Shown: in pieces, positions 13,782-59,557 of the stretch | Position numbering within the stretch: position 1 is the first letter of the stretch | Layout: every line of letters begins with the position of its first letter | Origin: a virus | Lineage: Duplodnaviria; Caudoviricetes | Reading direction: 5' to 3' (one strand) | Length of the DNA: 64,000 bases | Virus record (IMG/VR): IMGVR_UViG_2595698332_000001 | Span: 4,528-68,527 of that record | Position numbers and translations under genes: made by a program | The notes under the pieces: model-generated | Database searches by the model: none | What the model saw: the letters and a program-made list of their open reading frames with translations, nothing else | What the model was told of the DNA's origin: nothing

Positions 13782-13785
13782 TCCG

Positions 13786-40989: not shown

Positions 40990-41043
40990 CCGACCGGCGG
41001 AGTCGAACCGCCGACGTAGAGTGTTTACGTGCGCCAGCGTCGG
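40990..41043 (-). ncRNA. D-armless tRNA-like element
   Basis: CCGAC/GTCGG closing stem; ACGTA-AACACTC-TACGT hairpin; GGCGG-TTCGACT-CCGCC T-arm. Confidence 0.55.
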
Positions 41044-41272
41044 TGTGAGCGAAGGAGGAGGGAGATAGCATCAGGGGGAGCCGGGGCGGGAAGCCCCGGA
41101 AACAAATTGTGGGATTTGAGCCGATGAGGCTCGGGGTTAGACAGCAGGTGGTAGACGCTTTCGTATCAGTTCGTGGTCGGGAGTAGCAGGAGGGAGAGAG
41201 ACAGGAGAGAGACTGCGAGATTCGTCGTGGCAAGAACACCGGCAGAGGTCGCCGCAGGGGCGACAGCGGCAG

Positions 41273-41779
41273 TTATTCATCGTCTTCCCACCCCGGAACG
41301 TCGTCTTCGTTGTCGCGCTCCGCGGCGGCTTTGTATGCCTCGGCGAGTTCTTCGTCGTCGGCGTCATCGGCTCGCACCGCGTCCCACAGAACCATCGGGT
41401 TGCCGCCGACAATTTCCATCGGAACCGTCGCGCCGCGGATGTCAGCGATTTCGTCAGCGCCCACTGCGTCCATCAGCACGTACAGGAGCGAGTCGTCGTC
41501 GTTCCGGCCTCGGGGGAGGTCGAAGACCAGCGAGCCGGGGTCTTCGTAGTCGCTCGCGGAGACCGGGACGACGACCTTCCAGTCGGGCTGGAAGTACCCG
41601 CCGAAGTCTTTGATGTCCGGCTCGCCGAGCGTCGCCTCGAACACGCGGTCGGTGATTGCTTCGACCTCGCTGATGGCGGCCTCGACGGCTTCTGCGCCGC
41701 TGATGGGGCGTTCGGGTGCTGTGCTACGGAACGGACTAAGCGCCGCGACGACGCTTGCGATGGCTACTGTCAGGTTCAT
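41273..41779 (-). CDS. Hypothetical protein
   Basis: 168 aa acidic with hydrophobic N-terminus; leader motif variant upstream. Confidence 0.65.
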   Translation of the reverse strand: MNLTVAIASVVAALSPFRSTAPERPISGAEAVEAAISEVEAITDRVFEATLGEPDIKDFGGYFQPDWKVVVPVSASDYEDPGSLVFDLPRGRNDDDSLLYVLMDAVGADEIADIRGATVPMEIVGGNPMVLWDAVRADDADDEELAEAYKAAAERDNEDDVPGWEDDE

Positions 41780-41804
41780 GGTTTGGAAGGTTGCTCGGGT
41801 CGCA

Positions 41805-41877
41805 TAGCCCTGCGCGGAGTCGAACCGCGGTCCCGAGTTCCAAAGACTCGGATGATTGGCCGCTACACCACAGGGCT
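41805..41877 (-). tRNA. tRNA-Gln(TTG)
   Basis: Acceptor AGCCCTG/CAGGGCT; anticodon arm CGAGT-CTTTGGA-ACTCG; T-arm CGCGG-TTCGACT-CCGCG. Confidence 0.95.
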
Positions 41878-41879
41878 TC

Positions 41880-42318
41880 TAAGGTGACGCTCGTCACACG
41901 CCACCACTTGCTTGTCACTTGATTGCTACCACACTGTGCCACGCGGTTTCGCTGTTAGGCTACCCAAGAACGTGCGGTTAACCTCGGGCCGGGCGACCAG
42001 TCCGGCTAATATAGGCGACGAGTTGTGTAACAGGTGATTTGATGGTGGACTGCTCTTTTGCGTTGGCGGCAGTCCTCGGGTTTCGGCCAAAATCAGTTCA
42101 GGCGTTCCTCGGAGGTTCAGTGTAAAAGGCGGCGCGAAGGCCGCCTGCCCTACCGGAACTAACGGCGGGACACAACCTTCCGAGGGCCGTACAAGCCCTC
42201 ACGAGAACCCACGCCGCGCCCGCTCTTAAGGATTGATGACCGTCAGAACAGAGGCGGGGGGCCTCGGGGGGTGTGTCCTCGGAACGAGGTTCGCCGCCCG
42301 TTGGGGCAACGCCCTCAC
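41880..42318 (-). ncRNA. Putative non-coding RNA upstream of tRNA-Gln
   Basis: No convincing ORF; downstream of promoter repeat; hairpins; contains the antisense of the mRNA leader motif. Confidence 0.45.
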
Positions 42319-42366
42319 TAAACTAAACGCGACCTGATGACTTAACTCTGTCGGCTTCAATTCTTT
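42316..42366 (-). promoter_or_regulatory. Conserved viral promoter repeat, copy 2
   Basis: AAAGAATTGA...AGAGTTAAGTC...CGTTTAGTTTAGTG. Confidence 0.7.
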
Positions 42367-42459
42367 GGGAGAGCCTGAAATGTACGGTATCCTTCACGAA
42401 ACCGCACATCTGGTGAGCAACAATTAAGTCTTTGGGCGTTCTTTCTTTCATCGTTGGTT

Positions 42460-43062
42460 ATGAGCCAAAGCAAGAGCGGGGGTGAGAGGACACACAAGAA
42501 CAACGAGCGTGTGGTTCGTTGTCCTGCCACATACCCCGACGGTTCACAGTGCGAGAAAGAAGTTCTTTCTCGCGCTTTGCACCTTCACGTACTCCGTAAG
42601 AGCGACGAAGCGCACGGTGAATCAGGTGACATACCGCCGAATCTCGACGTTGAACACGCCGAGGTCGTCGGTGAGAAAGAAGTCGAGGTGGACTACCCCG
42701 AAGAACGCGAGCAGGAGGAAGTCGCCCGGCAGTGCCCGTACTGTCGGCAGGTGTTCCGCGGGAAGCAGGGCCTCGAAATTCACTTCGGGCAGGTCGTCGG
42801 GCGGATGAATCACCCGAAAGACCGCGACGAGTTCCCCGAGGCGACCGAGTGCCCCATCGTCCGGGTTGACGACAACAAGAACGTTATTGATGTCGTCCAA
42901 GAAGGCGCGGTGATGCCCTCGACCCGTCAGCGGAAGGAAGGACAGCGGCGCGAAGATGAGACGGTCGATGATTTCATCGCCCGGCTCCGCGCTTCGGGCC
43001 GGGACGACCAAGCCGACGCGGTAGAAGAAGCCCTTCAGGAGATGGGCGAAAAACTCTCTTAG
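42460..43062 (+). CDS. C2H2-type zinc-finger protein
   Basis: CPA..C...LHLHV..H and CPYC...GLEIHF motifs. Confidence 0.7.
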   Translation: MSQSKSGGERTHKNNERVVRCPATYPDGSQCEKEVLSRALHLHVLRKSDEAHGESGDIPPNLDVEHAEVVGEKEVEVDYPEEREQEEVARQCPYCRQVFRGKQGLEIHFGQVVGRMNHPKDRDEFPEATECPIVRVDDNKNVIDVVQEGAVMPSTRQRKEGQRREDETVDDFIARLRASGRDDQADAVEEALQEMGEKLS

Positions 43063-43598
43063 TTTTCTTCTGCGTTCCACAAGTCCTCGAAGTAGGATTG
43101 CGTGTACTTAGCCTCGGCTCCGTAGCGGGAGGTCTCTCGAAGGCGGTCTACGTAGCCCATAATCTCGATGAGGCCGCCCTCGGTCAGGTGGAGGTCGTCT
43201 TCGACTCGGGGGAGGATTTCTTCGAGCATGATGATGGCTTCTTCGTGGTTAACGACGAGGTAGTCCATCATCGGCATCAAGAAGTTGCGGATGCCCTCGG
43301 GGCTTTTGGCCTCGAAGACGAACGAGCCGCTGTCGCTTCGCTTTGTGATGCTGTGGTCTACGTCGTAGTCTTCGCAGTAGGCGTCCAACTTCCCCATCAG
43401 GACTTCTTGGTCTTCGGGGCGGTTGATTCGGATGAGTGGGTGGAAGCGGAAGCCGATGCGAGTGTCTTCGGTTTTCGTGAGTTGGGCTGTCACACTGCCT
43501 ACTACGTCGAAGACTCCGGCGAGGTGGGCTACGTGGTCTCGTTCCATACGAGTTGGTTGGAGTGCTGTGCCTTTTAATGCTATTGCTTGTTCTGTCAT
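43059..43598 (-). CDS. LAGLIDADG-like protein (degenerate motif)
   Basis: HLAGVFDVVGSV; FL..M..YL; HLTEGGLIEI. Confidence 0.7.
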   Translation of the reverse strand: MTEQAIALKGTALQPTRMERDHVAHLAGVFDVVGSVTAQLTKTEDTRIGFRFHPLIRINRPEDQEVLMGKLDAYCEDYDVDHSITKRSDSGSFVFEAKSPEGIRNFLMPMMDYLVVNHEEAIIMLEEILPRVEDDLHLTEGGLIEIMGYVDRLRETSRYGAEAKYTQSYFEDLWNAEEN

Positions 43599-43614
43599 TT
43601 GTGTTCTTGCTCAT

Positions 43615-43663
43615 AGAATTGACCCCGACAGAGTTAAGTCTTCGGGGAGCGTTTAGTTTAGTG
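43615..43663 (+). promoter_or_regulatory. Conserved viral promoter repeat, copy 3
   Basis: AGAATTGA...AGAGTTAAGTC...CGTTTAGTTTAGTG. Confidence 0.7.
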
Positions 43664-43920
43664 AGGGCAATCGGGCTGGTGTCCCTCACCTCTCCTCTTG
43701 GGTTACTTCGCGTTCTATACTACTCTCTGTTAGAGAGCGTAGTAAGAGAGCGTTCTACACTACCGAGCCTCATCGAGTTACAGCACGAGTTTCTACTCTT
43801 AGAGTTTCTATCTCTTAGAGTATCCCCCTCTGTAGTCTCCCCCTTAGAGAGAGCGTGAAATCTTCTGTGTGAAGTCACGCTGACGAGGTGGTCCCCGCTG
43901 GTCTCTGCCCTCTGGTATCT

Positions 43921-44403
43921 ATGGAACACATCTCCGAGAAGCAACCGCCGAGTGTCCTTACTTCAGACACCGAGAACGCGACTACTATTCAACCGAGTGA
44001 AGCACCGCCCTCCCAACGGGAGAAATACGAACGACTTCGGGCCTACAACACAGGTCTCTGGAACGGCCCGAAGCGCGAGAATAAGAAGGCGATGCACCGG
44101 CAGGACGACCTCCACAGGTTCGACGCCGTTGCCTCGCAACTTGAACTCACGCCGTTCCAGAAGGAACGTGGCCGTGAAATCTTCGATGAACTCGACTACT
44201 TCGGCCCTCCAGTCGAACACACTATCTTTGCTGTCTGCGCTGTTGTAGCGAACGCTGACTATCCTGACGGTACTCGATACTGGCCGCATCCACAGAAGGA
44301 AGACAACGACCCGATGTTCACCGAAATGGCCGACGAGTTGGACATGTCTGTCTCGAAGCAGATGTCCACGGTCATGAAGGTGAAGTCTCGCACGGGGTTG
44401 TAA
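43921..44403 (+). CDS. Hypothetical protein, possible TFB cyclin-like fold
   Basis: DAVASQLELTPFQKERGREIF...FAVCAVV. Confidence 0.55.
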   Translation: MEHISEKQPPSVLTSDTENATTIQPSEAPPSQREKYERLRAYNTGLWNGPKRENKKAMHRQDDLHRFDAVASQLELTPFQKERGREIFDELDYFGPPVEHTIFAVCAVVANADYPDGTRYWPHPQKEDNDPMFTEMADELDMSVSKQMSTVMKVKSRTGL

Positions 44404-44888
44404 TGCCTGTTCTGACTATTCTTGCCGACAATCGAGAACAGAAAGGCTGGTCGTTCGAGGACTACCCGGTCGAGGTCGAGAACGTGACGCTCGAAACCGG
44501 GGACTACACAATCCCTGAAGCCTGCGACTACGACGAGCGGCTGGACACCTACATCCCCGAGTTCGCCGTCGAGCGGAAGTCGGGGCAGGACTTCCTTCAG
44601 TCCATCACTCACGGTCGGGAACGCTTCAAGGCGGAGATTAAGCGTGCCGAGTCGTGGGATGACCCGCTGAAGGTGAACGTCGCCGAGCCGTGGACGACCT
44701 TCCAGAATCGCTATTCGGAGTTGCTGAAGTTCAGGAAGGTGTACCCGAATCAAATCGCCGGGACGGTTCGGGAGTGGGAGAAGTGGTACAACGTGGGGTT
44801 TCACTTCTACCCGAACCGAGCCGCCGCCGAGCAGGACACGTTCGATACGCTGATGACGTGGTATCGAGCGCATCAGTACCTCCCCTGA
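44403..44888 (+). CDS. ERCC4/XPF-family nuclease
   Basis: DNREQ, LETGDY, VERKS..DF..SI...R motifs. Confidence 0.88.
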   Translation: MPVLTILADNREQKGWSFEDYPVEVENVTLETGDYTIPEACDYDERLDTYIPEFAVERKSGQDFLQSITHGRERFKAEIKRAESWDDPLKVNVAEPWTTFQNRYSELLKFRKVYPNQIAGTVREWEKWYNVGFHFYPNRAAAEQDTFDTLMTWYRAHQYLP

Positions 44889-45104
44889 GTACGTATCGCG
44901 GCATACGGTTTACGAGAGCCGTTGTCGCGGTACGGTTCAAAGACGATTCTCATTTGCGGGCCTCATCGGCTCATAGAACGGAGTTAGTTTGTATCGCTGT
45001 GCCGCAGTAACGTTTATAAGCAACCCCCGGAAAGTACCGTTACCGAAGTAGAAATCGGGTGGGTACTTTAAGTCAGGCCGTCGTTACGGGCCGCAGGCCC
45101 GTCG

Positions 45105-45160
45105 CGGCGTTGAGGGCGCTGTCCTGTAGAGGTCCGCCGGTTCAAATCCGGTCCCACGCA
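45105..45160 (+). other. attP: 3' portion of tRNA-Leu(GAG)
   Basis: Anticodon arm CGGCG-TTGAGGG-CGCTG, long variable arm, GCCGG-TTCAAAT-CCGGT, CCCACGCA; 5' half absent; 47 nt upstream of integrase. Confidence 0.85.
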
Positions 45161-45207
45161 TCAGACGGCTCCGCCGTCTTGCGATTTTTACTTCGGTAGG
45201 TCAACCC

Positions 45208-46371
45208 ATGAACGCAGACCTACCAATCACCCTCGAAAACTGCGACGTAGACGTACAGCACAATCTCGACCCCGGTCGAAGCATCGTCGTCGTCCCGAAA
45301 ACGCTGGACGGCGCGCTGACCGACCGGCAACTCGTAGATTACAAAGACCAACGAGTGAAGTTCTTGTCATGGCTGTTGAACGTCGGGAAGAACCCCCACC
45401 GCGCGTCAGGATACGCGCCATACACCGTCTATAGCGACGCTTACCGGACGGCTCGGTTCGACCAGTGGGTGTGGGAACAGCGGGACGAATACAAGTACCC
45501 ACCCGATGAGCAGGACGCTCACGACTACATCGACCACCTCGCCTACTCCGACAAAGGGCAGGTCGAGAAAGGCAAACTTCAGGAAGGCATCGAACACCTC
45601 AACAAGTGGCTTCAGCACACGACCGGCGAGCCGGAGTGGGAGTTCAAAGTCTCGTTCCGCTCGTCCAGCGGAAACCTCGAACCCCGCGACTACCTCTCGG
45701 CGGAGGAACGCCGCGCCGTCAGGCAGGCCGCCCTCAACGCCGGGAACATCCCCGCCTACAACTCGCTGTCACCAGCGGAGCGTCGCGGCTGGAAGCAACA
45801 CATCTCGAAGATTCTCGGCAAGCCCTACGAGGACGTAACCCCCGAGGACTGGGGCGAAGTTGACGGGTGGGAAGTCACCTCGCTCGTTTGGGCCAGTCTC
45901 GACGCCGGGTTCCGACCCGATGAGGTCGGCAAGGCGAAGGTCTCGTGGGTGGACACCGAGAACGGCGTCCTTCGCATCCCCCACGAGGACTCCTCGAAGA
46001 ACGAAGGGAACTGGACAGTCACGCTCACCGACCGCACAACGACTGCGCTTCAACGGTGGCTCCGAGAGCGGGAGAACCGTCCTCGGTATGATGACTCCGA
46101 ACTCCTGTGGCTTACCAGCCACGGGAACCCCCACGGCTCAAAGAGCCTGTCTCGCCTCATCAAGCGGCTCTGCGACGAGGCTGGCATCGACTACGAGAAC
46201 CGGCAGATGTCGTGGTACACGATTCGTCACTCCGTCGGGACTCACATGGCGCACCACCGCGACCTGAAGGCCGCGAAAAGTCAACTCCGACACAAGAGTC
46301 CGAAGACGACCATGCAATACGACAACGTATCCGTGGAAGACCGGCGCGACGCCCTCGACAAGATGGGCTAA
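45208..46371 (+). CDS. int: Tyrosine integrase
   Basis: GFRPDE, K, YTIRHS and LRHKSPKTTMQY catalytic residues. Confidence 0.93.
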   Translation: MNADLPITLENCDVDVQHNLDPGRSIVVVPKTLDGALTDRQLVDYKDQRVKFLSWLLNVGKNPHRASGYAPYTVYSDAYRTARFDQWVWEQRDEYKYPPDEQDAHDYIDHLAYSDKGQVEKGKLQEGIEHLNKWLQHTTGEPEWEFKVSFRSSSGNLEPRDYLSAEERRAVRQAALNAGNIPAYNSLSPAERRGWKQHISKILGKPYEDVTPEDWGEVDGWEVTSLVWASLDAGFRPDEVGKAKVSWVDTENGVLRIPHEDSSKNEGNWTVTLTDRTTTALQRWLRERENRPRYDDSELLWLTSHGNPHGSKSLSRLIKRLCDEAGIDYENRQMSWYTIRHSVGTHMAHHRDLKAAKSQLRHKSPKTTMQYDNVSVEDRRDALDKMG

Positions 46372-46549
46372 TCGCTCGCGTCTTCGGTCAGAGTACGCAC
46401 CTCCTCCCGGTGCGCCTCGTCCAGTTCAGCAACCATACCGCGGATTATTTGAACCGCTTCATCTTCGCTGACGTGATGGAGTCCCCGCTCCGGGTGCTGG
46501 TCGTCGCCCTGAAGCCGATGACCCGGCACACGAACCGGAACGCTCGGAG

Positions 46550-46972
46550 TCACCACACCACCTCGTCTTCGTCGTAGGCCGCGTACAGTTCGCTCATATG
46601 CTCCAGCATCGTGTCCGAGTCTGAAGCGTCTATCGGCTCCTCCGCGGCGGCGTTGTGGCGGGCGATGGACAAGCAGGTGTCGCACAGTCCGTTGTTCGGG
46701 CCGGGAGTCTCGTTGCCGCAGACCTCGAAGTATTCGCACTCCAGTTCCTCCGCGCTCGGCTCCGGCTGGTATTCCTCTAACGCTTTGTTCATCCAGTACG
46801 ACACCTGACTTTCGGAACACCCGAGGACGTGGGCGATTTCATACTGGTACTTGTGCTTCTCGTTCAGTTTCACCATCAACTTGGCGTCCTTCCACGGCTC
46901 GCCCTTCTTAGCGAAGAAGGGGTTTGGGGAAGGGCCGAGTTCTTCGGTGAGGTCTCGCTCGCTTTTGCTCAT
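46550..46972 (-). CDS. HTH plus Zn-finger protein (regulator/excisionase candidate)
   Basis: YEIAHVLGCSESQVSYWM; C...C...CDTC. Confidence 0.7.
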   Translation of the reverse strand: MSKSERDLTEELGPSPNPFFAKKGEPWKDAKLMVKLNEKHKYQYEIAHVLGCSESQVSYWMNKALEEYQPEPSAEELECEYFEVCGNETPGPNNGLCDTCLSIARHNAAAEEPIDASDSDTMLEHMSELYAAYDEDEVVW

Positions 46973-47190
46973 TTGATTGTCCCTATGGTTGAGATTTCCT
47001 CGATGAACTCCGGGTCTGGTTCATCGCAGTTGGGGCAGAGGTCAACAGGCGCGTCGCTGAAGCCGGGAGCGTCCGGCGTCGGCCAGCGCGTCTGCTTCCA
47101 TCCGTCTTTCAGTTGGTACGACTTTCTACCACAGCCGTCGCATTTGTAGCCGTAGTAAAACGACCGCCCGACCCAGTACCCCCGGCTCAT
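46969..47190 (-). CDS. Zn-finger protein
   Basis: CDGCG...DLCPNC. Confidence 0.6.
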   Translation of the reverse strand: MSRGYWVGRSFYYGYKCDGCGRKSYQLKDGWKQTRWPTPDAPGFSDAPVDLCPNCDEPDPEFIEEISTIGTIK

Positions 47191-47366
47191 CTGTCGCCTA
47201 TCACCCGACAGTACGATTCCTCGCAGTCGGGTGAGTTACACACGAACCGGGTGAACGGGTGTTCGTATTTGACTCGCGTCGCCCCCATCTCGCAGTCACA
47301 CGTCAACTCCTCGTTGGCGTGTTCCCACCACTCCGGGGGAGTACGTCGGTCACTCGGCGGCCTCAT
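47187..47366 (-). CDS. Small Cys-rich protein, 59 aa
   Basis: MRPPSDRRTPPEWWEHANEELTCDC...CNSPDC; ATGA coupling. Confidence 0.5.
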   Translation of the reverse strand: MRPPSDRRTPPEWWEHANEELTCDCEMGATRVKYEHPFTRFVCNSPDCEESYCRVIGDR

Positions 47367-47370
47367 CGGA

Positions 47371-47808
47371 CTACTCCGCGCTATACCGAAGCGTGTAGCC
47401 GTCCATCTCCAACTCCACGCACCCCGAGTCGGGGTCGGGGTCTACGTGGATGTCTACTCGCTCGTTCCCTTCGTGGAACGCTTGCTCGATGTGGAGGACT
47501 CGTTCTTCGGCGTAAGAAGAAACGTCGTCCCACTCGGTGATGTCGGGCAGGTCGATGCGGTCGCCGTCCGGGGTGTCGAGTTCATCGTACTCGAAGCGGT
47601 ACGTGCGGGTTTCCTCACACGACCACCCCTCGCCCCACCGGCCCTCGACGTAGCGACAACGCTCGTGGAAGATGGCCGCGCCATCCTCGATTACGGGGTT
47701 GTCAATGTCGCCGAGTTCCCACTCGTGTTCGTGAGCGTGAGGCTCGATGATGCCGCCGCGGATGAGGTCACGCCGGGAGGTTCCCGGCGGGTAGTTGCCC
47801 CCGACCAT
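47371..47808 (-). CDS. Hypothetical protein
   Basis: 145 aa acidic. Confidence 0.7.
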   Translation of the reverse strand: MVGGNYPPGTSRRDLIRGGIIEPHAHEHEWELGDIDNPVIEDGAAIFHERCRYVEGRWGEGWSCEETRTYRFEYDELDTPDGDRIDLPDITEWDDVSSYAEERVLHIEQAFHEGNERVDIHVDPDPDSGCVELEMDGYTLRYSAE

Positions 47809-47870: not shown

Positions 47871-47933
47871 AGGTTGTGTCCCGCCCCCGTTGGGCGGAGA
47901 AACCGCCGCCGGGGAGTGACCCCGGTTACGTCG

Positions 47934-48337: not shown

Positions 48338-48343
48338 GAAGGC

Positions 48344-49708
48344 TTAGGCGGCCTCCTCGCCCTCGTCGGTTTCGGTCTCGCCGCCAGCGGTGACGAGCAT
48401 CGTGCGGAGTTCTTCCTGCCGCGTCTCGAACTCGTCGCGCTGGTGGCTGATGTTCTGCTCGAACTTCTCGACCGCCGCGGAGTACGAGAACTCATCGAGT
48501 TCTCCCTCGCCCTCGGCTTCACGGCGACGACGCTCGGCGAACTGCTCGGCCCGAGCATCGACCGTGTTGATGGCCTGCGCCGGGTTCATCACCATGTCGT
48601 TCGAGGCGTTCACGAGGTCGTTGAGGCGGCTCGTGTTCTCACCACCGCGGTAGTGGTGGGTGATGGCGTAGGTCGCGCCGGAGTGGAGTTCCCACATCGT
48701 GGGGAGGAACTGGTTCTCGGCGCGGCTCCGAACGTTCGAGGCGGCTTCGCGGGCGAGGTAGGTCGGGAACCCGGCCATCTCGAACCACGCCTGAAGGTCG
48801 TCGTTGTGGCCCGTGACTTCCGAGAACTCGAAGTCGAGGTAGTCCACTTCGATGTTGTTCGCTTCCTCGATGACCTCGGCGAGCCGGTCGGTCATCAAGT
48901 CCATCTCGGCGAGGATGTCGTCCCACCACTCGCGGGTTTCGGACGGCTCGCCGACGTGCCGCCGGGTCTTCTCCTCCGTGATGTTGCGGATGGAGTTCTG
49001 ACAGTAGCGGTCTTGGGCGAAGCCTTCCGCGTAGAGGGCCGTTCCGCCGAAGTAGTCGTACCCCGTGCGGATGCCGAGCAGGATGGGGCCGCCCTCGGTG
49101 TCGTCGCCGATGTCGATGCTGAAGGCGTCGAACAAGAGTTCCATGTGAACTTCGCCGCCGCCTTTGTAGGTGCGAACCTCACCGAACACCGCGTCGCCGA
49201 GGTCTTCATCACGAAGCGCCTGCTCCAGCGGCTCGTAGAAGTCCATCGGGTTGACGATGGTGTAGTCGGTGGTCGGGACGTGCCACAGAGGGTCACGCCA
49301 CTGGTTATTGTTCTCTTTGCGGAACTCGCCCTGTACCCACTCCGTCATCTTGTCGGGCGAAACGACCGACTGGAAGCGGTCGGTAGCGATGAAGATGTCT
49401 CCCTGTGCCGTCTCGAAGGCTTCGACCCCATCGGGCGAGTCCTCGTTGATGGTGTCCACGTCGAGGCGGTTGGCGACCTGCTCGGGCACCTTCCAAGCGT
49501 TGGTCGTCGGCTCGGCGCGTTCGAGGCCCCGAAGGGCCGTCGCCAGTGAAGTCTCCGGCATGTCGTCCGGGTAGACCTCGGTGCCGAGGTTGCCCGTGTA
49601 ATCCACGGAGGCGGCCTGCTGTGCCTTCTCCGAGAGTTCCACGTTGTTGTGGCGGGTGAGTCCTGCGAACTGTACCACGTCGTCGGGTTTCGTGCTTCGT
49701 CGGGGCAT
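48344..49708 (-). CDS. DUF932/DUF945-like protein
   Basis: T.DYTIVNP, GYDY.G, RYCQNS, RRHVG and TMWELHSGATYAITH resemble DUF932 motifs. Confidence 0.55.
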   Translation of the reverse strand: MPRRSTKPDDVVQFAGLTRHNNVELSEKAQQAASVDYTGNLGTEVYPDDMPETSLATALRGLERAEPTTNAWKVPEQVANRLDVDTINEDSPDGVEAFETAQGDIFIATDRFQSVVSPDKMTEWVQGEFRKENNNQWRDPLWHVPTTDYTIVNPMDFYEPLEQALRDEDLGDAVFGEVRTYKGGGEVHMELLFDAFSIDIGDDTEGGPILLGIRTGYDYFGGTALYAEGFAQDRYCQNSIRNITEEKTRRHVGEPSETREWWDDILAEMDLMTDRLAEVIEEANNIEVDYLDFEFSEVTGHNDDLQAWFEMAGFPTYLAREAASNVRSRAENQFLPTMWELHSGATYAITHHYRGGENTSRLNDLVNASNDMVMNPAQAINTVDARAEQFAERRRREAEGEGELDEFSYSAAVEKFEQNISHQRDEFETRQEELRTMLVTAGGETETDEGEEAA

Positions 49709-49789
49709 AGGTTGTGTCCCGCCGTCTTTGTTTTAGGACGCAGGCGGCTTCGTCCGATGAGGCGTCGGGGTCGTGAACCCCGTGGAGTC

Positions 49790-49879
49790 TTACTCTACGC
49801 CTTCACAGCACTCGTCGGCTACCTGCTTGCCGTAGTAGCGGGAGCCGCACGTTTCGCACTCGTACTGTGGCTCACTCAT
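49790..49879 (-). CDS. Zn-finger microprotein, 29 aa
   Basis: MSEPQYECETCGSRYYGKQVADECCEGVE. Confidence 0.6.
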   Translation of the reverse strand: MSEPQYECETCGSRYYGKQVADECCEGVE

Positions 49880-50150
49880 CTCCATCTTCGGCCACCTCCA
49901 CGGCCTCGGTCACGACCTCCTCGACCTGCGCCGGAGGAATCGTGATGTTCGCCTCGATGCTTTCGACCTCGACGGTCGGGACGTTCACGGCGAGCGTCAT
50001 CGGGACTGCGACCTCGTAAGGAGACGACCGGCCCGAAGCCGGTGCCGTCTTCCTGAAGCGGATGTCGTCATCTCGCCAGTTCACGACGAGGTAGCCGTCG
50101 TACTCTTTCGTCTGTTCTTCAGTCCGGGCGTTTGTCGTGATTTCACTCAT
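49872..50150 (-). CDS. Hypothetical protein
   Basis: 92 aa from MSEITT. Confidence 0.65.
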   Translation of the reverse strand: MSEITTNARTEEQTKEYDGYLVVNWRDDDIRFRKTAPASGRSSPYEVAVPMTLAVNVPTVEVESIEANITIPPAQVEEVVTEAVEVAEDGDE

Positions 50151-50424
50151 CGTAGGGCGGGAGTTCGTGCTTCTTCCTGAACTCGGGGTCGTCAACTTCG
50201 CCTGTCTTCAGGGCTTCTTTCATCACCGGGTCGTCGGGGCCGTACTTCTCGACGTGTTCATCCCACGTCAGCATCTCCGGCGGCTCGTGGTGGGGTAGCG
50301 GCTCCATCCGAGGCGGGGCGGTTAACCCCGCGAGGATGAGCGGAACCACGATGATGAGGAACACCGCACCAACGACGGCCAGCCCGCCGAGAATAGCGGA
50401 TTCGAGGGTCACGGATGACCACAC
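50143..50424 (-). CDS. Small membrane protein
   Basis: Hydrophobic AILGGLAVVGAVFLIIVVPLILAG; start uncertain. Confidence 0.6.
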   Translation of the reverse strand: MWSSVTLESAILGGLAVVGAVFLIIVVPLILAGLTAPPRMEPLPHHEPPEMLTWDEHVEKYGPDDPVMKEALKTGEVDDPEFRKKHELPPYDE

Positions 50425-50588
50425 TCCCCGTCGATGTGACGCCGGACAGTCGCCTCCTTTCGTTCGAGCATGAAGGCGATGTCAGCCGGGGTTCGGCCCG
50501 CGAAGCGAAGGTGCCGCATCGCCTCGCACTCGTGGTAGCCGACGTAGTTCTCTTTGACCTCCGCCGGAGTTCGAGTATCAGTAGTCAT
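50409..50588 (-). CDS. Small HTH-like protein, 59 aa
   Basis: TPADIAFMLERKEATVRRHIDGECGH. Confidence 0.55.
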   Translation of the reverse strand: MTTDTRTPAEVKENYVGYHECEAMRHLRFAGRTPADIAFMLERKEATVRRHIDGECGHP

Positions 50589-50794
50589 AGGCTCTCACCC
50601 TGTTGAGACTCTGTATAGAACTCGGCGGGGTCATCGGGTTTTAGCCCGAGTATCACAGAACGATTTACTACCGGGAGTCGTACTGTGAGAGACCTGTAGA
50701 TTCCTCTCGGTGTGATGATGCTCCGGTACTTGAACCCCGGAGAGTACCGAGGGGTGCGTTCCACCATACGAACCGACGGCTTCGGGAACTTCAT
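50585..50794 (-). CDS. Hypothetical protein
   Basis: 69 aa from MKFPKP; ATGA coupling on both sides. Confidence 0.5.
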   Translation of the reverse strand: MKFPKPSVRMVERTPRYSPGFKYRSIITPRGIYRSLTVRLPVVNRSVILGLKPDDPAEFYTESQQGESL

Positions 50795-51267
50795 GCGTGC
50801 CTCTTGCTCCAGTTCACGTACTCCGCCCACTCCTCGCTGAAGCGGCGGTAGTTACGCGACTTCTTATTGAACGCCTCGATGGTGTCCAGTTCGTCGTCTG
50901 TCCAGCCCGACTTCAGGGCCTTCTGCCGGTCGCGGAGATACGGCCACGCAGTTACCGCGATGCGATAGCCGTCGAGATGAAACCCCGCGAGGAACCAGTA
51001 TTCCACGCCGTCGCCGTTGCGAGTCCACGAGAAGGCCGCACAACCGTCGCCGTTGTCCTTCAAGTCGCCCTCGACAATACAGCGGGCGATGACCTCGCCG
51101 TCGAGGAACCGCTCGGACTCTTTCATCCGCTGGCGGAAATGCGAGCAGACGTGGTACGCCTCGGGCTGGTGGGGGTAATCGCTCGGGTGAAACCGCCGGG
51201 CGCGGTCGATGGGGATGACTTGCTTGCCAACCTCATCGGGGTGAATCATAGATTCACTGACCGCCAA
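50791..51267 (-). CDS. Hypothetical protein
   Basis: 158 aa; SHFRQRM...IAVTAW, loosely RelE/BECR-like. Confidence 0.65.
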   Translation of the reverse strand: MAVSESMIHPDEVGKQVIPIDRARRFHPSDYPHQPEAYHVCSHFRQRMKESERFLDGEVIARCIVEGDLKDNGDGCAAFSWTRNGDGVEYWFLAGFHLDGYRIAVTAWPYLRDRQKALKSGWTDDELDTIEAFNKKSRNYRRFSEEWAEYVNWSKRHA

Positions 51268-51553
51268 TTGGAATCACCTCTGCGTCCGGGTCGAGCATCG
51301 CTCGCTCGATGAGCAGTCGGATGCCGATGCCCTCGCCCATCATCTCGGCGACCATCGCGTCGTTCTCAGCCCGCCGTGCGAGGCCCGGAGAGAGGCCACC
51401 GACCGCCGTCGTGCGTCGCTCGCTTTCGCCAGCGAACTGGATGTAAGCCCTGTCAGGCACTTGGTCGAGGTCGGTGTTCTCCGAGTCCGTCACGTCGAAG
51501 CCGTTGATACCGTGGATGTACGCCGCAACTTCGTCCGTCATTTGGTTGTTCAT
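51254..51553 (-). CDS. Hypothetical protein
   Basis: 99 aa; leader motif upstream. Confidence 0.65.
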   Translation of the reverse strand: MNNQMTDEVAAYIHGINGFDVTDSENTDLDQVPDRAYIQFAGESERRTTAVGGLSPGLARRAENDAMVAEMMGEGIGIRLLIERAMLDPDAEVIPIGGQ

Positions 51554-51692
51554 AGTTGGAAGGTTGTATCCCGCCCCGTTGGCGGGGAGGACACCGGGCG
51601 GGACTCGAACCCGCCGCCGCCCTGTCGGTGTCGGTCGCTTACTCCCTACTCAAAGAATAGAGTCGTGGAGTATTAATTCTTTCTGCGAAGAA

Positions 51693-52601
51693 CTACCCGT
51701 TGATGGCCTCCTCGGCGGCGTCCCGCAGGTCTTCGATTTCCTGCCGGGTTTCCGACGAGATGGGGGCGTGGCCCGCCGCGTCCTTCACCGCCTTCAGGCG
51801 GCGGTAGTACGCCTCGAAGCCGTCGTACATCTCCTCGGAGATGTCACGGGAGCCGAAGGCGTCGCGGATGGCCGAGCGAACGGTCGTCCCCTTCGGGGCG
51901 TCTCGAATCTCGATGACGACGCCGCGGATGTCTTCGTTGCTCAGGTCGTTGACCGGGCCGAAGTCGGCCTCGTCGGTGAAGATGGGCGTGTTGATGTGAC
52001 CGAAGAAGTCCATCAGCATCGCCAGTTCGTTCACGCCGCAGTGGCAGTAGGGGCAGAACTCCATCGAGTCAGCGAAGCGCGACGTGACGTTGAACGCCGT
52101 GCGGATGTCGTGCTTCTGGTCGCTGTGGCCGTGGTTCAGGCCGCAGACCGGGCACTCGAAGCCGGATACGCTGGCCGACTTCACCATCCCCTGCGCCTGC
52201 TGAAGGATGCTCGCCAGTTCGGGGTTCACGTCTTCGGCCTCCGTGATGGCGTCGCCGAAGTCGAGGTCGTTTCGCATCGTGTGGTCGCCGAGGCTCCAGC
52301 GGGTGGACTGGAAGCCAGCCGTGAACTCATCGACGGTCGTCGCCCGCTCCAAGAACGGGTAGACGAAGGACTCCTCGACCTCATCCGTCACGTCGTTGAT
52401 GTCCTCGGCGTCGGCCTCGTAGTAACCAGACTCACCGAGTTCCTGCGGCTCGACGGTGATGTCCACAAAGGGGTAGTCGTACCGGAGGTCTTCGGCCACG
52501 TCTTCGGCTTCCTCCTCGCTGAGGAACACGTCGTATTCGTCGCCCTCGAACAGCACCACGTACTCGAACTCGCCGCCGTTGTTGTCGTTGTTGTCGTTCA
52601 T
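51693..52601 (-). CDS. Hypothetical Zn-binding protein
   Basis: CPVCGLNHGH...KH...CPYCHC; leader motif upstream. Confidence 0.75.
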   Translation of the reverse strand: MNDNNDNNGGEFEYVVLFEGDEYDVFLSEEEAEDVAEDLRYDYPFVDITVEPQELGESGYYEADAEDINDVTDEVEESFVYPFLERATTVDEFTAGFQSTRWSLGDHTMRNDLDFGDAITEAEDVNPELASILQQAQGMVKSASVSGFECPVCGLNHGHSDQKHDIRTAFNVTSRFADSMEFCPYCHCGVNELAMLMDFFGHINTPIFTDEADFGPVNDLSNEDIRGVVIEIRDAPKGTTVRSAIRDAFGSRDISEEMYDGFEAYYRRLKAVKDAAGHAPISSETRQEIEDLRDAAEEAING

Positions 52602-52697
52602 TTTCGGTTGTGTCCCGCCGTCATTTGTAGTGCGCCCAACGGGTTGGCGCGAAACGCAGTCGGGGTCGTGAACCCCGAGGGGTCTTAGCCTACTGCG

Positions 52698-53387
52698 TCA
52701 GACCGGAGTGACCGTCACTCCCCACATCGCTCGGGCTATGAACTCCATCTCGGCGTTGGTGAGCCGGTAGCGCACTCCGTCTACCGTGAGTTCACGCTCC
52801 ATCTCGCTCGGCGCGTTGCCGAAGCGCACCTGATACGCCTTCTCCGTGGAACCGGGGGCCACCGACGACCCCACGACTCGGCGGCTCGTCGTGTCCGGGT
52901 GGTAGAACTTCCGCGACCACGTTAGGAGCAGGTGGCCGTTGAGGAGCCAGCCGTCGCCGTTCACCTCAACGTGGCCCGCAAAGGGCGGCTGTTCGGCCAG
53001 CCCGTCGATGACCCGTCGCCGCACCCGGCCTTCACGAACGTTGTCGTAGAGCCGGATGATGGGGGTAGGGTCGTCGCCGTCGGCTTCTTCGTAGACCTCG
53101 ATGAGAGCATCCACGAGTTTCGTCTTCAGGTGAACCCCGAGGTGAAGGGGGTCGTAGTCGCCGATGCGGATGGTGTAGTTTTCCGCCGCGTCGTCGGGCT
53201 GAACTGTAACCTGCGGGTGGTCGTCGTTCGCCGCGAAGATGAGGATTTCATCACCCCGGCGGAGCAGGCCCCATAGGCCGTGGTCGAACAGCAGGCGGTT
53301 CAGGGGAGACAGCGGGACGAGTTCGATTTCGCCGTCGTCGTTCTCTACGAGCAGGTTGGCGTCGTTCTTGTCGAGTAGTTTAGGCAT
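52698..53387 (-). CDS. Hypothetical protein
   Basis: 229 aa; GGAGGT upstream. Confidence 0.7.
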   Translation of the reverse strand: MPKLLDKNDANLLVENDDGEIELVPLSPLNRLLFDHGLWGLLRRGDEILIFAANDDHPQVTVQPDDAAENYTIRIGDYDPLHLGVHLKTKLVDALIEVYEEADGDDPTPIIRLYDNVREGRVRRRVIDGLAEQPPFAGHVEVNGDGWLLNGHLLLTWSRKFYHPDTTSRRVVGSSVAPGSTEKAYQVRFGNAPSEMERELTVDGVRYRLTNAEMEFIARAMWGVTVTPV

Positions 53388-53508
53388 CGTTACCTCCGAA
53401 TAGGTCGCCGAGCGTTCGCTCCTCGTACTCGAACAGCGAGTGGTACTCGGTGGGGTCGATGTGTTCGTGCGGCTTGCCGGGCTTGTAGGTGGGTTCAGGT
53501 AGGTTCAT
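53380..53508 (-). CDS. Small hypothetical protein, 42 aa
   Basis: MNLPEPTYKPG...; GGAGG upstream. Confidence 0.5.
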   Translation of the reverse strand: MNLPEPTYKPGKPHEHIDPTEYHSLFEYEERTLGDLFGGNDA

Positions 53509-53509
53509 C

Positions 53510-56308: not shown

Positions 56309-56339
56309 TTTTGGAAGGTTGTGTGTTGGTTGCGTCGCT

Positions 56340-56579
56340 CTACGCCTCGATGTCGTCCACCGACAGAACCATCGGCTCGTCGTCGGTGTCTATGGCGTTC
56401 TCTGCGGTGAAGAACACGCCAATAGTCTCGTCGTCGTAGCGGTGGAAGTCGTAGAACTCCGTGTAGTTCTCGGCGTCGTCAAACGCTTCGTGAAACGCGA
56501 CGAGGGCGTCTTCACGGGTCGAAGCCTGCGTTAGCAGTTCGTAGCGGTGCGGCATCTCGGGTGTGGTTGTGTCCATCAT
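56340..56579 (-). CDS. Hypothetical protein
   Basis: 79 aa from MMDTTTPE. Confidence 0.6.
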   Translation of the reverse strand: MMDTTTPEMPHRYELLTQASTREDALVAFHEAFDDAENYTEFYDFHRYDDETIGVFFTAENAIDTDDEPMVLSVDDIEA

Positions 56580-56729
56580 TTTCGGTCGAGTCCCGCCGTC
56601 TTCACGGGGTTGGGCACCCCGAAGAAATGAAGCGGGTAACGTTAATTCTTTCGCTATGCGTTTCACCCACTCGATGTGGGCAGGAGCCGGAGGGGAGTCG
56701 AACCCCTCGGGGGCCTGATTACCCGCGGC

Positions 56730-56903
56730 TTAGTTCTCGGAGTAGTCGTCGGCGGCGTCGTCCACGATGTCGTGAAGCGAGTCTATCGCTTCATCGAGTT
56801 CGTCCCAGTCGTCCGGGTGAAGCGTCTGCTTCAGTCCTTCGAGGTCGTCAACGTGGTCGTGCCATCGCTCGCGGAATACCTCGGGGTCGTCGGTCGTCGT
56901 CAT
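56730..56903 (-). CDS. Hypothetical protein
   Basis: 57 aa acidic; TAATG coupling. Confidence 0.6.
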   Translation of the reverse strand: MTTTDDPEVFRERWHDHVDDLEGLKQTLHPDDWDELDEAIDSLHDIVDDAADDYSEN

Positions 56904-57694
56904 TACTCCAGCCCCCACACGAAGTCTTCGAGGTCGTCCATCGCGTCGAACTCGGGGTAGTAGCGTTTCACGGGGTAAGCGTCTGCGTGGATGACTGTTA
57001 AGTCGTTCGCCCCTCCGTCGAGTTCGGCGTCGTTACGACGCCGCAGTTCACTCAGGTAGAAGTTGTGAGCCTTTGCCGACGAGGTGTGCCACATCCGGCG
57101 CGACTTCGTGGCCGTCGCCATCTGTTGCCCCTCCTCCATCCAAAGGTCGAAGGCGATTTCGACCTCGTAGAGCGTGAACTTCAGCATCTCATCCCAAAGG
57201 CGGCGGCGGGTGTCTACGTTTTCCGCGCCGTACTCCTCGGCCAGTATTTGCCGAAGGACGAGTTCACGAGCGAAGTCTTCGGGGTGGTCGTAGGGGACGT
57301 TTTGGGCGTAGTGAACCTGTTCACGGACGATTTCCTCGCCGAGCCACGCCGGGAGGTCTTCGACTTCGTAGGACACTATTCGAGCGAACTCTCCGGGCGA
57401 CGAAGCGTTACGCTCGCTGATACTTTGCTCTGCCCACGAAGTGATGAGCCGCCGGAGGCCCTGAAAGCACTCGCCGTCGTTTCGCACGACGTTCTCGATG
57501 GTGACTCGGGTGATGCCGTTCTCGGGGTCGGGGGACAACGCCCCCAACACGTCGCTTCGCGTTACCGGCTCCACCCCCGCTTCGGGGTCGCCATCCCGCA
57601 GGATTCGGGCCACGTCTCGGGGGCCGAGGTAGGTCAGCACTTCATCCACAAGGTCTTTCGCGCGGTCGTTGTCGTCGTTGGTGGTTTCGCTCAT
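56903..57694 (-). CDS. Hypothetical protein
   Basis: 263 aa from MSETTND; leader motif upstream. Confidence 0.7.
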   Translation of the reverse strand: MSETTNDDNDRAKDLVDEVLTYLGPRDVARILRDGDPEAGVEPVTRSDVLGALSPDPENGITRVTIENVVRNDGECFQGLRRLITSWAEQSISERNASSPGEFARIVSYEVEDLPAWLGEEIVREQVHYAQNVPYDHPEDFARELVLRQILAEEYGAENVDTRRRLWDEMLKFTLYEVEIAFDLWMEEGQQMATATKSRRMWHTSSAKAHNFYLSELRRRNDAELDGGANDLTVIHADAYPVKRYYPEFDAMDDLEDFVWGLE

Positions 57695-57708
57695 AGGTTG
57701 TGTCTCCG

Positions 57709-57843
57709 TTAGTTCGCAGTGCGTTCGTCGTGGCAATCGCCGCAGTAGTACCCGATGTAGAGGCCCCGTCCCGTGTTCCACGGGATGAAACTCTCGCCAC
57801 ATCTGATACATCTCTTTTCGCCGGGGTTGCTGATGGCACTCAT
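57709..57843 (-). CDS. Zn-finger microprotein, 44 aa
   Basis: CIRCG...YCGDC. Confidence 0.55.
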   Translation of the reverse strand: MSAISNPGEKRCIRCGESFIPWNTGRGLYIGYYCGDCHDERTAN

Positions 57844-58076
57844 CGGATTCTTCCTTCGACCTCCGAAGGCCGGATGGAGTAGCCATCGCCGTTCTTCCAC
57901 ACGTTTCGTTCATCAACTTCGACCATCTCGCCCCCGTCGAGCAGGATGGTGTACCGGGGGCCAGCATCGAGGACTTCGCCGACCACGACGCCTTCCCACG
58001 GGATTTCAGCCATCACTTCATCGCCGGTTTCGGGCATCTCCATCCCGGCCAGTTCGCCGAGCGAAGCGACGCTCAT
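57840..58076 (-). CDS. Small SH3-like beta protein
   Basis: 78 aa from MSVASL; ETGDEV...GEVL...YTI. Confidence 0.55.
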   Translation of the reverse strand: MSVASLGELAGMEMPETGDEVMAEIPWEGVVVGEVLDAGPRYTILLDGGEMVEVDERNVWKNGDGYSIRPSEVEGRIR

Positions 58077-58363
58077 AGGCCCACCCCCTCGGGGCTGGTG
58101 CGGCCTGTGTAACAGGTCACTTTGGCCTTTGCCCACTTGAGGAGGCCACGGAACGCTTCTTCGCTGTCGATGATGAGGTAGGAGCCGCCCTTTCGCTCGC
58201 CGTCGGCTTCGACGTGAATCGAGTTGTTTTCGCGGATGAACAGCAGGCCCTCGAAGTCTTCCACGCCGCTGATGCCGAACCACAGGCACTCTAAGCGGGT
58301 GGCGAGGAGTTCGTCTTCGGTAGTCGGTTCAGGCGTTTCGTTCGGGTTCTTGCTTGCGAACAT
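58073..58363 (-). CDS. Hypothetical protein
   Basis: 96 aa; leader motif upstream. Confidence 0.6.
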   Translation of the reverse strand: MFASKNPNETPEPTTEDELLATRLECLWFGISGVEDFEGLLFIRENNSIHVEADGERKGGSYLIIDSEEAFRGLLKWAKAKVTCYTGRTSPEGVGL

Positions 58364-58469
58364 TTTTGGAAGGTTGTGCCCCCCCGATGAGGCTGGCCGT
58401 CCCGCCGCCGGGGGAAGGCGGTGGGGTCATCGCCAAGACTTCACGCTATCGCTTCAATTCTTTGCGTCG

Positions 58470-58793
58470 TTAGACTGTTTCGCCGTTCAGCAGTCGCTCA
58501 CGGTTCCCCGTCTTGCCATCTTCGACCGACTCCCAGTAGGAGTCGGGGATGTGGCGGGGGTCGTAATGCTCGTGAAGCCGTCGCTCGTCTTTCGGGGCTT
58601 CGGCTTCACGCTTTCGCCGCATCTCCTCGCGCCGTTCCCGGTTCGTGCGACCATCGGCGATGTACGCCTCGGTTTCCTGCCGGGAGAGGTTCGGGCCGGT
58701 GGCCCGCTCGTTAACGTTGGCCGAAACGGCCTTCAGGCCGGGGTCGCGGGGGCCGGTGAACTGGCTTCGGTGGTTCCAGTCGTCGTCACTCAT
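58470..58793 (-). CDS. Hypothetical protein
   Basis: 107 aa; coupled. Confidence 0.6.
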   Translation of the reverse strand: MSDDDWNHRSQFTGPRDPGLKAVSANVNERATGPNLSRQETEAYIADGRTNRERREEMRRKREAEAPKDERRLHEHYDPRHIPDSYWESVEDGKTGNRERLLNGETV

Positions 58794-59064
58794 TATTAAT
58801 GACTACCGCGACTTGTTCGATGTCTTCGGCGACCCCCCGCTCTATCAACTTCGGGAGTTCTTGAAGGTATGCCGTATGAACAGCGAACGTTACCATCGTG
58901 AGGGAGGTCGTCAGGGCTTCGTTCCACAAGATTCGGAACTCGCCGACATTACACCCCACTTCCTGAAGTTCTCGGGCGACTTGCTGTTCCGCGTTGTCGC
59001 CGTTGTCTGAAGCGACAGTCGCGGCGAACGTCTGGTACTCAAAGGGCTTGTCTCTGAAGTTCAT
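58786..59064 (-). CDS. Hypothetical protein
   Basis: 92 aa; coupled. Confidence 0.6.
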   Translation of the reverse strand: MNFRDKPFEYQTFAATVASDNGDNAEQQVARELQEVGCNVGEFRILWNEALTTSLTMVTFAVHTAYLQELPKLIERGVAEDIEQVAVVINNE

Positions 59065-59435
59065 TATTCCACGACCCCCACAACGTCGTAGCCGGGTTCT
59101 GCGCCGCCTTCGCTCTTGGCCTGCTCGTGGCTCTCGAAGGGGCCAGCCACCACCGGAAGGGAAATCACGTCTTCGTTAGTGAGTTCGGGCCTCGTTTCGT
59201 GTATCTCTCCGATGAGTTCCACGATGTAGAAGACCTCTTTAGACCCGGCGGGGTCATCGGGTTTCTGCTCGATTTGTTTCCGAAGGGCTACTAACGCTTC
59301 GTCTACATCCTTCCGAGTTAGCCTCTCTCCGTTAGAGACTACGACGGCCTCGTCTTCGTCAAAGTGGAAGGCGTCTTCGTTCATCTTGCTATTCGCGTAT
59401 TCGGCGACTACTTCAATCGGGTTCATTTCGCTCAT
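59064..59435 (-). CDS. Hypothetical protein
   Basis: 123 aa from MSEMNP. Confidence 0.6.
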   Translation of the reverse strand: MSEMNPIEVVAEYANSKMNEDAFHFDEDEAVVVSNGERLTRKDVDEALVALRKQIEQKPDDPAGSKEVFYIVELIGEIHETRPELTNEDVISLPVVAGPFESHEQAKSEGGAEPGYDVVGVVE

Positions 59436-59557
59436 TTCTGTGCGCCGTTGTGGCGCGAGGCCCGGTGGGGGTCGTGAACCCCCCGGCGGCATTACCGCGT
59501 CCGGGTTGTGTCGCTGAAGCAATTAACTTACCGGGAGTTAAATCTTTGCTTCAGACT

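Follow-up and report, generated by a model that had tools for sequence, protein, structure and literature searches.

Compact tRNA-like elements between the genes of a Mincapvirus-like hafunavirus as candidate t-element-like cut signals

Six compact elements, each built like the acceptor and T-arm half of a transfer RNA (tRNA), lie on the coding strand of IMGVR_UViG_2595698332_000001, a virus genome of 68,527 bp with direct terminal repeats, of which a 64-kb stretch (the window) was analysed here. By its sequence, the window is that of a Mincapvirus-like hafunavirus. The evidence below leaves little doubt that these elements (E1 to E6; Table 1) belong to a real structured RNA family that is under selection. 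As to their role, we see an even chance that they are viral t-elements, i.e., signals for the cutting of long viral messages by the host tRNase Z and/or RNase P.

The whole 68.5-kb genome was scanned on both strands with a strict pattern, which allowed Watson-Crick pairs only and required a T stem of ≥5 bp with a 7-nt loop TTCRNNN, an acceptor stem of ≥5 bp separated by a gap of 0-1 nt, and a linker of 6-30 nt. The scan returned six matches, exactly E1 to E6, all on the - (coding) strand and none in the late-gene arm on the + strand, compared with a mean of 0.12 and a maximum of 2 matches in 200 dinucleotide-preserving shuffles. An earlier sequence-only reading of this DNA had placed elements at the same six sites, and the closing stems of different sequence that it listed (CCGAC, AGGCGT, GACACCG, ACGCAG, AGCCG and CCCGG) were correct. 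Minimum-free-energy folding recovered the closing stem and a further hairpin just 3' of the element in all six cases and a hairpin at the T-arm position in four, with competing pairings in E3 and E5. The T arm of 5-6 bp with a 7-nt loop described earlier stood as regards stems and loops (TTCGACT twice, TTCGAGT once and TTCACGA three times), but TTCACGA departs from the tRNA T-loop consensus. The T-arm motif GGTTCRANYCC, as used in PMC1920247, is present in E1, E3 and E5 and absent from E2, E4 and E6, and a T loop is found in half of the window copies. For E2, E4 and E6, the T-arm hairpin is predicted as a longer stem with a 3-nt loop, which makes their T-loop reading uncertain. ARAGORN called only a tRNA-Gln in the window, and Rfam at E-values up to 10 over 36000-64000 gave no match, tRNA or other, at any of E1 to E6; as they also have no cloverleaf, the elements were rejected as tRNA genes (RF00005).

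The build of the family was examined in 20 distinct members from the window, its relative HRTV-7, HF2 (a virus of a different genus, with a 57% identical portal protein) and five IMG/VR records. In each module, an acceptor-like stem (5-7 bp) is followed by a linker (10-25 nt), a T-arm-like hairpin, the 3' acceptor strand and one unpaired base; a GC-rich hairpin, unrelated in sequence between copies, follows 1-4 nt beyond that base. These mini elements, which measure 43-54 nt in the window and 38-54 nt in the family, have no anticodon arm and no ribozyme core. In tRNAs, the acceptor and T stems add up to 12 bp, a length measured by the tRNA end-processing enzymes. Here, the single stems vary across the 20 members (acceptor 5-7, T stem 4-6), but their sum stays near the tRNA value: acceptor, gap and T stem together come to 11 in ten members, 12 in eight, 13 in one and 10 in one, with 11, 11, 13, 12, 11 and 11 layers in E1 to E6. 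The linker carries GG at positions 4-5 in 13 of 20 members and some GG in 19, and its first base is A in 13. On the basis of textbook tRNA structure, the linker may be a D-loop remnant (A14, R15, Y16, G18, G19) able to dock on the T loop. The TAA in the longer linkers of the window comes after G or GG and may be part of the same D-loop-like motif; the small TAA hairpin previously proposed for five of the six elements appears in the minimum-free-energy folds of E1, E2 and E6, but is weak or has rivals in E4 and E5. When compared with shuffles, the 3' hairpin showed z < -1 in 16 of 23 elements (mean z -1.62), a set that includes three near-duplicates with differing downstream sequence.

We then compared the elements among relatives. 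The early-gene stretch at 49000-53000 shows 95-98% identity to HRTV-2, HRTV-11, HCTV-6/15 and HRTV-7, which are viruses of Halorubrum and Haloarcula, and the records of HRTV-11, HRTV-2, HCTV-6 and HRTV-7 are classified as Hafunaviridae, genus Mincapvirus. The strict scan found six elements in HRTV-2, five in HRTV-11, three in HCTV-6 and seven in HRTV-7; orthologues that it missed do exist, with G-U pairs or one changed loop base (E1 of HCTV-6). Across the six modules and four relatives, there were 17 distinct substitutions, 12 at unpaired positions and five in stems, and pairing was kept in all five of the latter and broken in none. E1 is kept in all four relatives, and its changes in HCTV-6 are confined to loop positions. 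E5 has four distinct stem substitutions, all of which keep the pairing (one pair goes from G-C to G-U to A-U), and in E6 of HCTV-6 a T-stem G-C has become G-U. The hairpin after E2 also keeps its stem among relatives, with a variable loop. No variant inside E1 to E6 was found among those listed for the metagenome contigs of four runs.

The seventh element of HRTV-7 (E7) is associated with an inserted gene. A LAGLIDADG homing-endonuclease gene (HRTV-7 13738-14530) is inserted right after E2 and ends inside E7, so that it is bracketed by two elements. The insertion brings a new element, hairpin and leader (see below) directly 5' of the displaced downstream gene, in favour of the t-element reading. 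No promoter-like box lies near E7.

More distant copies were sought as well. In the first 45 kb of HF2, two elements of the same build were found, HF2-a (2906-2944) and HF2-b (4375-4414), each followed by a hairpin and an ATG. The exact T arm of E2, E4 and E6 occurs at 55 loci in IMG/VR, one of which, on a contig of 39% GC, has an abutting acceptor and is likely a chance match. A first degenerate pattern gave at least 118 IMG/VR loci, with three true elements among the matches listed. A second, which fixes part of the linker, two T-stem pairs and the loop only, gave at least 119; among the matches listed, 33 lie in ARAGORN tRNAs, and an abutting acceptor is present in 10 of the 11 non-tRNA matches with a fully paired T stem (≥6 bp). 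When a tighter similar pattern was run on one genome per species (185,579 species of bacteria and archaea), the element build was absent from all 57 loci that matched. A covariance model (R1) made from five seeds, with the window elements not among them, detected E3 at 31.6 bits (E 1.5e-5) and located several copies in each of five virus records from IMG/VR. When regions fetched from these records were put through the strict scan, 5, 2, 2 and 1 further copies emerged, all on one strand within each record. In one of these viruses (G004, 71.8 kb), the leader motif of the window follows one of the two mini elements; five ARAGORN tRNA calls (Gln, undetermined, Tyr, Asp and Thr) lie at 45165-46387 of this genome, on the same strand as its mini elements.

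When 15 distinct sequences were aligned by fitting to the model, 95.9% of the cells were paired (a value reached by none of 500 shuffles), compared with 61.1% after shuffling and 39-53% in slid controls, although the model was used both to select the 15 members and to align them, which favours the structure. Both sides have changed in 11 of the 12 pairs of this alignment. The sequence-only reading had named covariation at homologous loci as one of the points on which it should be judged, and it is seen both here and in the five pairing-preserving stem changes among the close relatives.

The positions of the elements relative to genes and promoter-like boxes were then considered. E3 and E6 come 42-50 nt 3' of a box, E1 and E5 together with their hairpins stand immediately 5' of one, and E2 and E4 sit between cistrons, in contact with the upstream stop codon and with no box nearby. 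Judged by these positions, transcription units begin with an element in two cases and end with one in two more, and the other two elements are internal. The window has 10 copies of the box, AAAGA[ACT]T[TC][AGT]A, on the - strand and two on the + strand; the box resembles the alpha/TATA part of the HF2 intergenic-repeat promoters, which are reported to be active (PMC8707807). If the spacing to the HF2 5' end at 4384 is applied, the start sites would lie about 12 nt 5' of E3 and about 4 nt 5' of E6, but 7-14 nt within HF2-a and the two G004 copies. It had been claimed that three elements touch an upstream stop codon and that three precede a conserved leader; both statements hold, the first for E2, E4 and E5 and the second for E2, E3 and E4, each of which comes before the leader GGGA[CT]ACAACC and an ATG. 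This leader, which is not a Shine-Dalgarno sequence, occurs seven times on the - strand (60631, 52616, 51572, 49720, 47882, 37422 and 33803) and once on the + strand (42167); it lies 0-8 nt before an ATG at six of the seven - strand sites (the exception being 37422), often with GGC ahead.

Genuine tRNAs occupy the same kind of slot as the mini elements, in support of the t-element reading. The tRNA-Gln of the window ends 25 nt before the ATG at 41779, as had been noted from the sequence, and the HF2 tRNA genes (18366-18583 and 20655-20897) come directly after the promoters IR2 and IR3 and are followed by a protein gene. Behind E1 lies a homologue of the HF2 gene that comes after tRNA-Asn and tRNA-Tyr. 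HF2 also carries a type II hammerhead at 10292-10359 (41.1 bits, Rfam), just 5' of the helicase gene. Counting mini elements, hammerhead and tRNA genes, hafunaviruses would thus use three kinds of RNA-cutting features at gene boundaries.

A search of sequencing runs listed no RNA run that contains the virus of the window, but transcript data are available for HF2. According to PMC8707807, reverse transcription PCR (RT-PCR) products of up to 35 kb and Northern bands of 0.5-9 kb were obtained, and the authors propose that long primary transcripts are processed. Its Table S4 and Fig. S2 indicate that complementary DNA (cDNA) primed within HF2-a (2937-2924) connects back to the upstream gene, and its supplement indicates that, for the downstream 12.7-kb RNA, cDNA reaches gene 010 (3073-3093) and not gene 005. 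As the cDNA links 5' yet the 12.7-kb RNA excludes the upstream gene, the HF2 RNA has a break at the 3' end of HF2-a (2944) or immediately beyond it. This break fits a cut on the 3' side of the element.

The features recognised by RNase P, tRNase Z and the CCA-adding enzyme are two stacked helices that together have the length found in tRNA, the T loop and the elbow. The viral elements may offer such a helix, with acceptor and T arm stacked coaxially, and most copies also have a D-loop-like GG from which the elbow could arise. If so, host tRNase Z would cut just 3' of the element, and RNase P just 5' of it where the 5' strand is transcribed and no stop codon is lost. tRNase Z is favoured as the main enzyme because a 5' cut would remove the stop codons of E2 and E7 and because the known host case is a cut on the 3' side. 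In this way, long transcripts of early and middle genes would be divided at fixed points; the downstream mRNA would have its 5' end 1-4 nt from a protective GC hairpin and 26-61 nt from the start codon, and the upstream RNA would end in or just before a tRNA-like structure. Read-through RNA would carry the whole element and be cut, promoter-started RNA would begin nearby, and both would yield similar mRNAs. An extension of this proposal, in which the released 40-55-nt RNAs, perhaps CCA-tailed and with a tRNA elbow, soak up host proteins that bind the top half of tRNA while the elements also cut viral messages, has quite a small chance of being right; the proteins concerned would perhaps be processing, modification or tRNA-directed defence enzymes, and the effect would be to re-tune tRNA metabolism or to blunt defence.

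Several observations weigh against cutting by tRNA enzymes. The acceptor stems have 5-7 bp and not always 7, and the three TTCACGA loops of the window lack the T-loop A58 and can take a plain hairpin fold. E2 and the E7 of HRTV-7 contain the upstream stop codon, and an RNase P cut would therefore leave stop-less mRNAs. Other Haloferax tRNA-like elements were reportedly not cut in vitro in the study of Hoelzle et al. 2012 (Biochimie). When 71-nt pieces were compared with Rfam, the top-scoring same-strand family spanning the whole element was mascRNA-menRNA (RF01684), with 20.0 bits for E3 and 16.5 bits for HF2-b; as a tRNA-like family it speaks for the t-element reading, but these scores are far below the 42.5-bit gathering cut-off, and membership in that family was rejected. 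The break at HF2-a could equally reflect a terminator plus a promoter, that is, termination and re-initiation. Furthermore, primer extension mapped an HF2 5' end at T-4384 (PMC8707807), which is 9 nt inside HF2-b, and RNA from this promoter would thus have no 5' acceptor strand. RT-PCR also detects HF2 RNA that spans HF2-b (PMC8707807); since the same RNA also spans the hammerhead ribozyme, RT-PCR does see uncut precursors.

Alternatively, the element and its hairpin may be folds that stay uncut and block exonucleases or separate cistrons with no part for tRNA enzymes. The GC hairpin behind most copies (see the z-scores above), the ability of the TTCACGA type to form a simple long hairpin, and the continuous RNA across HF2-b all suit such insulators. 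However, a plain stabiliser needs no two-helix geometry of 11-12 layers, no TTCGAnT loop and no GG linker, and the slots shared with real tRNAs are left unexplained; we hold this alternative to be unlikely. A slimmer chance is given to the elements being tRNA mimics per se, either as released small RNAs that titrate tRNA-binding host enzymes or defence proteins, or as leader elbows that engage the ribosome or translation factors, allowing translation of genes that lack a Shine-Dalgarno sequence. A GG linker and T loop do exceed a bare minihelix, copies are many per genome, and most of them keep a constant distance (26-61 nt) from the start codon, but E1 and E5 precede a promoter-like box rather than a start codon, and nothing connects the elements to any defence system.

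Quite improbable is a role at the level of transcription, as promoter regions or as nascent RNA bound by a viral regulator, with incidental likeness to tRNA. This proposal draws on the boxes just 5' of E3, E6, HF2-a, HF2-b and both G004 copies and just 3' of E1 and E5, as well as on the mapped HF2 5' end inside HF2-b. Nevertheless, E2, E4 and the E7 of HRTV-7 have no promoter-like box nearby, the distance between box and element varies from 26 to about 50 nt, and covariation in two helices argues for a folded single strand. Finally, it is very improbable that the elements are decaying relics of viral tRNA genes with no present function: E1 does retain a 5-bp stem with a 7-nt loop at the position of the anticodon arm and sits where HF2 has two tRNA genes, and partial tRNA-Arg and tRNA-Thr are described as tRNA relics in this virus family (PMC7230728), but the compact build is uniform, a recent gene insertion (HRTV-7) brings a fresh copy, and the stems are perfect in six paralogues and across virus genera with compensatory changes, a covariation that disfavours decay.

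Table 1. Elements and associated features (window coordinates unless stated; z, hairpin stability compared with shuffles)
Feature	Coordinates	Strand	Description
E1	40990..41043	-	acceptor 5 bp; 25-nt linker with a hairpin of 5 bp and 7-nt loop; T stem 6 bp; loop TTCGACT
Hairpin after E1	40966..40986	-	GC-rich; z -3.4; followed by promoter-like box 40956-40965
E2	49760..49802	-	acceptor 6 bp; T stem 5 bp; loop TTCACGA; TAA stop of upstream small open reading frame in linker
Hairpin after E2	49736..49755	-	followed by leader 49710-49720 and ATG of 454-aa gene (48344-49708)
E3	51590..51632	-	short-linker type; acceptor 7 bp; 10-nt linker with GG; T stem 6 bp; loop TTCGAGT
Hairpin after E3	51570..51586	-	z -3.1; 3' arm overlaps leader 51562-51572; ATG at 51553
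E4	52654..52698	-	acceptor 7 bp; T stem 5 bp; loop TTCACGA; first base is last base of upstream TGA
Hairpin after E4	52632..52650	-	followed by leader 52606-52616 and ATG at 52601
E5	56685..56730	-	acceptor 5 bp; T stem 6 bp; loop TTCGACT; first base is last base of upstream TAA
Hairpin after E5	56666..56680	-	z -2.4; followed by promoter-like box 56642-56651
E6	59461..59505	-	acceptor 5 bp; 1-nt gap; T stem 5 bp; loop TTCACGA
Hairpin after E6	59442..59456	-	z -2.2; first ATG 26 nt past E6
E7 (HRTV-7)	14424-14464		seventh element of HRTV-7, from strict scan; linker holds stop codon of inserted LAGLIDADG gene
Promoter-like box	51673..51682	-	AAAGAATTAA; 5' of E3
Promoter-like box	59538..59547	-	AAAGATTTAA; 5' of E6
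tRNA-Gln(UUG)	41805..41877	-	genuine; ARAGORN; Rfam 52.1 bits; 25 nt 5' of ATG at 41779

Further features of the neighbourhood were recorded. Of 17 neighbouring open reading frames tested against Pfam, none of the 14 on the - strand matched any family, and two of the three on the + strand did (integrase and ERCC4). On the + strand at about 45103-45165, 5' of the integrase gene (45208-46371, Pfam Phage_integrase), there is a stretch that resembles the 3' part of a tRNA, with a T arm (loop TTCAAAT) and a 3' acceptor strand. Metagenome contigs pile up there (summed depth 600-4200, bin 44644-45267), loose contig ends fall at 45103 and 45149/45161, and this stretch is likely the attP site. E1 to E6 were themselves rejected as attP partial tRNAs, for both acceptor strands are present, they lie 1.6-14 kb from the integrase gene, and no contigs pile up at them. 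Terminators were likewise rejected, with no T run after any element, and so was the hammerhead, with no match in the window at the gathering score. The stretch at 40901-40975, between the E1 module and the gene that comes next, has a long inverted repeat around a palindrome; its arms are two promoter-like boxes (AAAGAATTGA) that point towards each other, and the arrangement may serve as a bidirectional promoter or as an operator. Close to the right end of the genome (63640-63760, - strand), a short G-rich motif (GGGGTTTCAGGG and variants) is repeated several times; one copy gave a false match in a G-U-tolerant scan, and the motif may be related to the terminal repeat or to packaging.

In the records of HRTV-11, HRTV-2, HCTV-6 and HRTV-7, the tRNA-Gln is the sole RNA feature annotated in the element region, and nothing is annotated at the elements save doubtful small coding sequences (CDS) in some. 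The relatives disagree on small or 5'-extended CDS across E1 and E6 (L002 22759-22896 and L001 25590-25739; L002 4459-4917 versus L001 4587-4958). These calls probably need revision, and several elements now covered by doubtful small CDS could be better annotated. Our literature search, which covered neither the supplements of bioRxiv preprints nor Hoelzle 2008/2012, found no description of this viral element family. In the available text of the HF1/HF2 genomics papers (PMC7230728, PMC8707807), only a partial tRNA-Thr (attP), an aberrant tRNA-Pro and a hammerhead are mentioned.

The idea put forward from the sequence, that the virus punctuates its transcripts with tRNA mimics, is upheld as far as selected acceptor/T-arm-half structures, a slot shared with tRNAs and a competent host are concerned, whereas the cutting itself stays inferred. 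The element family gives transcript processing of the HF2 type a concrete signal. If the t-element reading is true, an archaeal virus borrows the tRNA-maturation enzymes of its host for mRNA punctuation, and the compact 38-54 nt elements could be natural insulator or processing parts for haloarchaeal genetics. Punctuation of RNA by tRNA enzymes also occurs in animal mitochondria and in vertebrate long non-coding RNAs. tRNA-like cut signals have been reported in plant mitochondria (PMC1920247) and for one haloarchaeal rRNA (PMC4326828, PMC3296008).

Within the hafunaviruses, the HF2 hammerhead and the tRNA genes are RNA-cutting features that, like the mini elements, lie on the coding strand between a promoter or upstream gene and the next gene; unlike them, the hammerhead cuts itself and the tRNAs have a role in translation, and the window holds one tRNA and no hammerhead. 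The mascRNA/menRNA of MALAT1 and MEN-beta are cut by RNase P and RNase Z, which forms the 3' end of the long RNA. They too are a tRNA-like family, whose acceptor and T arm align to the viral elements, but they are from vertebrates, and the likeness is one of functional analogy and not of membership. The t-elements of plant mitochondria, as described by Forner et al. 2007 (PMC1920247), are dispersed, have a conserved T arm and lie at mRNA 5' or 3' ends; some cuts fall inside reading frames, the mapped ends agree with RNase Z and RNase P sites, and the released elements carry CCA-like tails. Their in-frame cuts parallel the overlap of E2, E4 and E5 with stop codons. In contrast, they are organellar, mostly about 74 nt long and of non-canonical cloverleaf shape, while the viral elements have 38-54 nt and no anticodon arm.

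The closest comparison is with Haloferax, which belongs to the archaeal group that hosts this virus. Mincapviruses are reported to plate on Haloferax gibbonsii LR2-5 (PMC9229481). In line with the sequence-only reading, haloarchaeal cells process tRNA-like elements embedded in transcripts (PMC4326828, PMC4946936): the Haloferax tRNA-like structure 5' of the 5S rRNA (Hoelzle et al. 2008 and 2012, as cited there) is reported to be cut by tRNase Z, and engineered t-elements on either side of a CRISPR RNA to be processed in vivo by RNase P and tRNase Z (PMC4326828, PMC3296008, PMC4946936). Primer itele1 (PMC4326828) matched three metagenome loci with neither a 5S rRNA nor an R1 match, and the locus inspected among them is protein-coding; the idea that this primer represents the 5' part of the t-element was dropped. 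Like the viral elements, the t-element of Haloferax volcanii is a tRNA-like fold within a longer haloarchaeal transcript, where the cut by tRNase Z makes the downstream 5' end; unlike them, it is cellular and, as described, present in a single copy 5' of 5S rRNA, whereas six copies per viral genome lie before or after protein genes here. Judged by predicted structure, the viral elements belong with the t-elements, as their coaxial stack is near 12 bp (11 or 12 layers in 18 of 20 members), and their cleavage is predicted.

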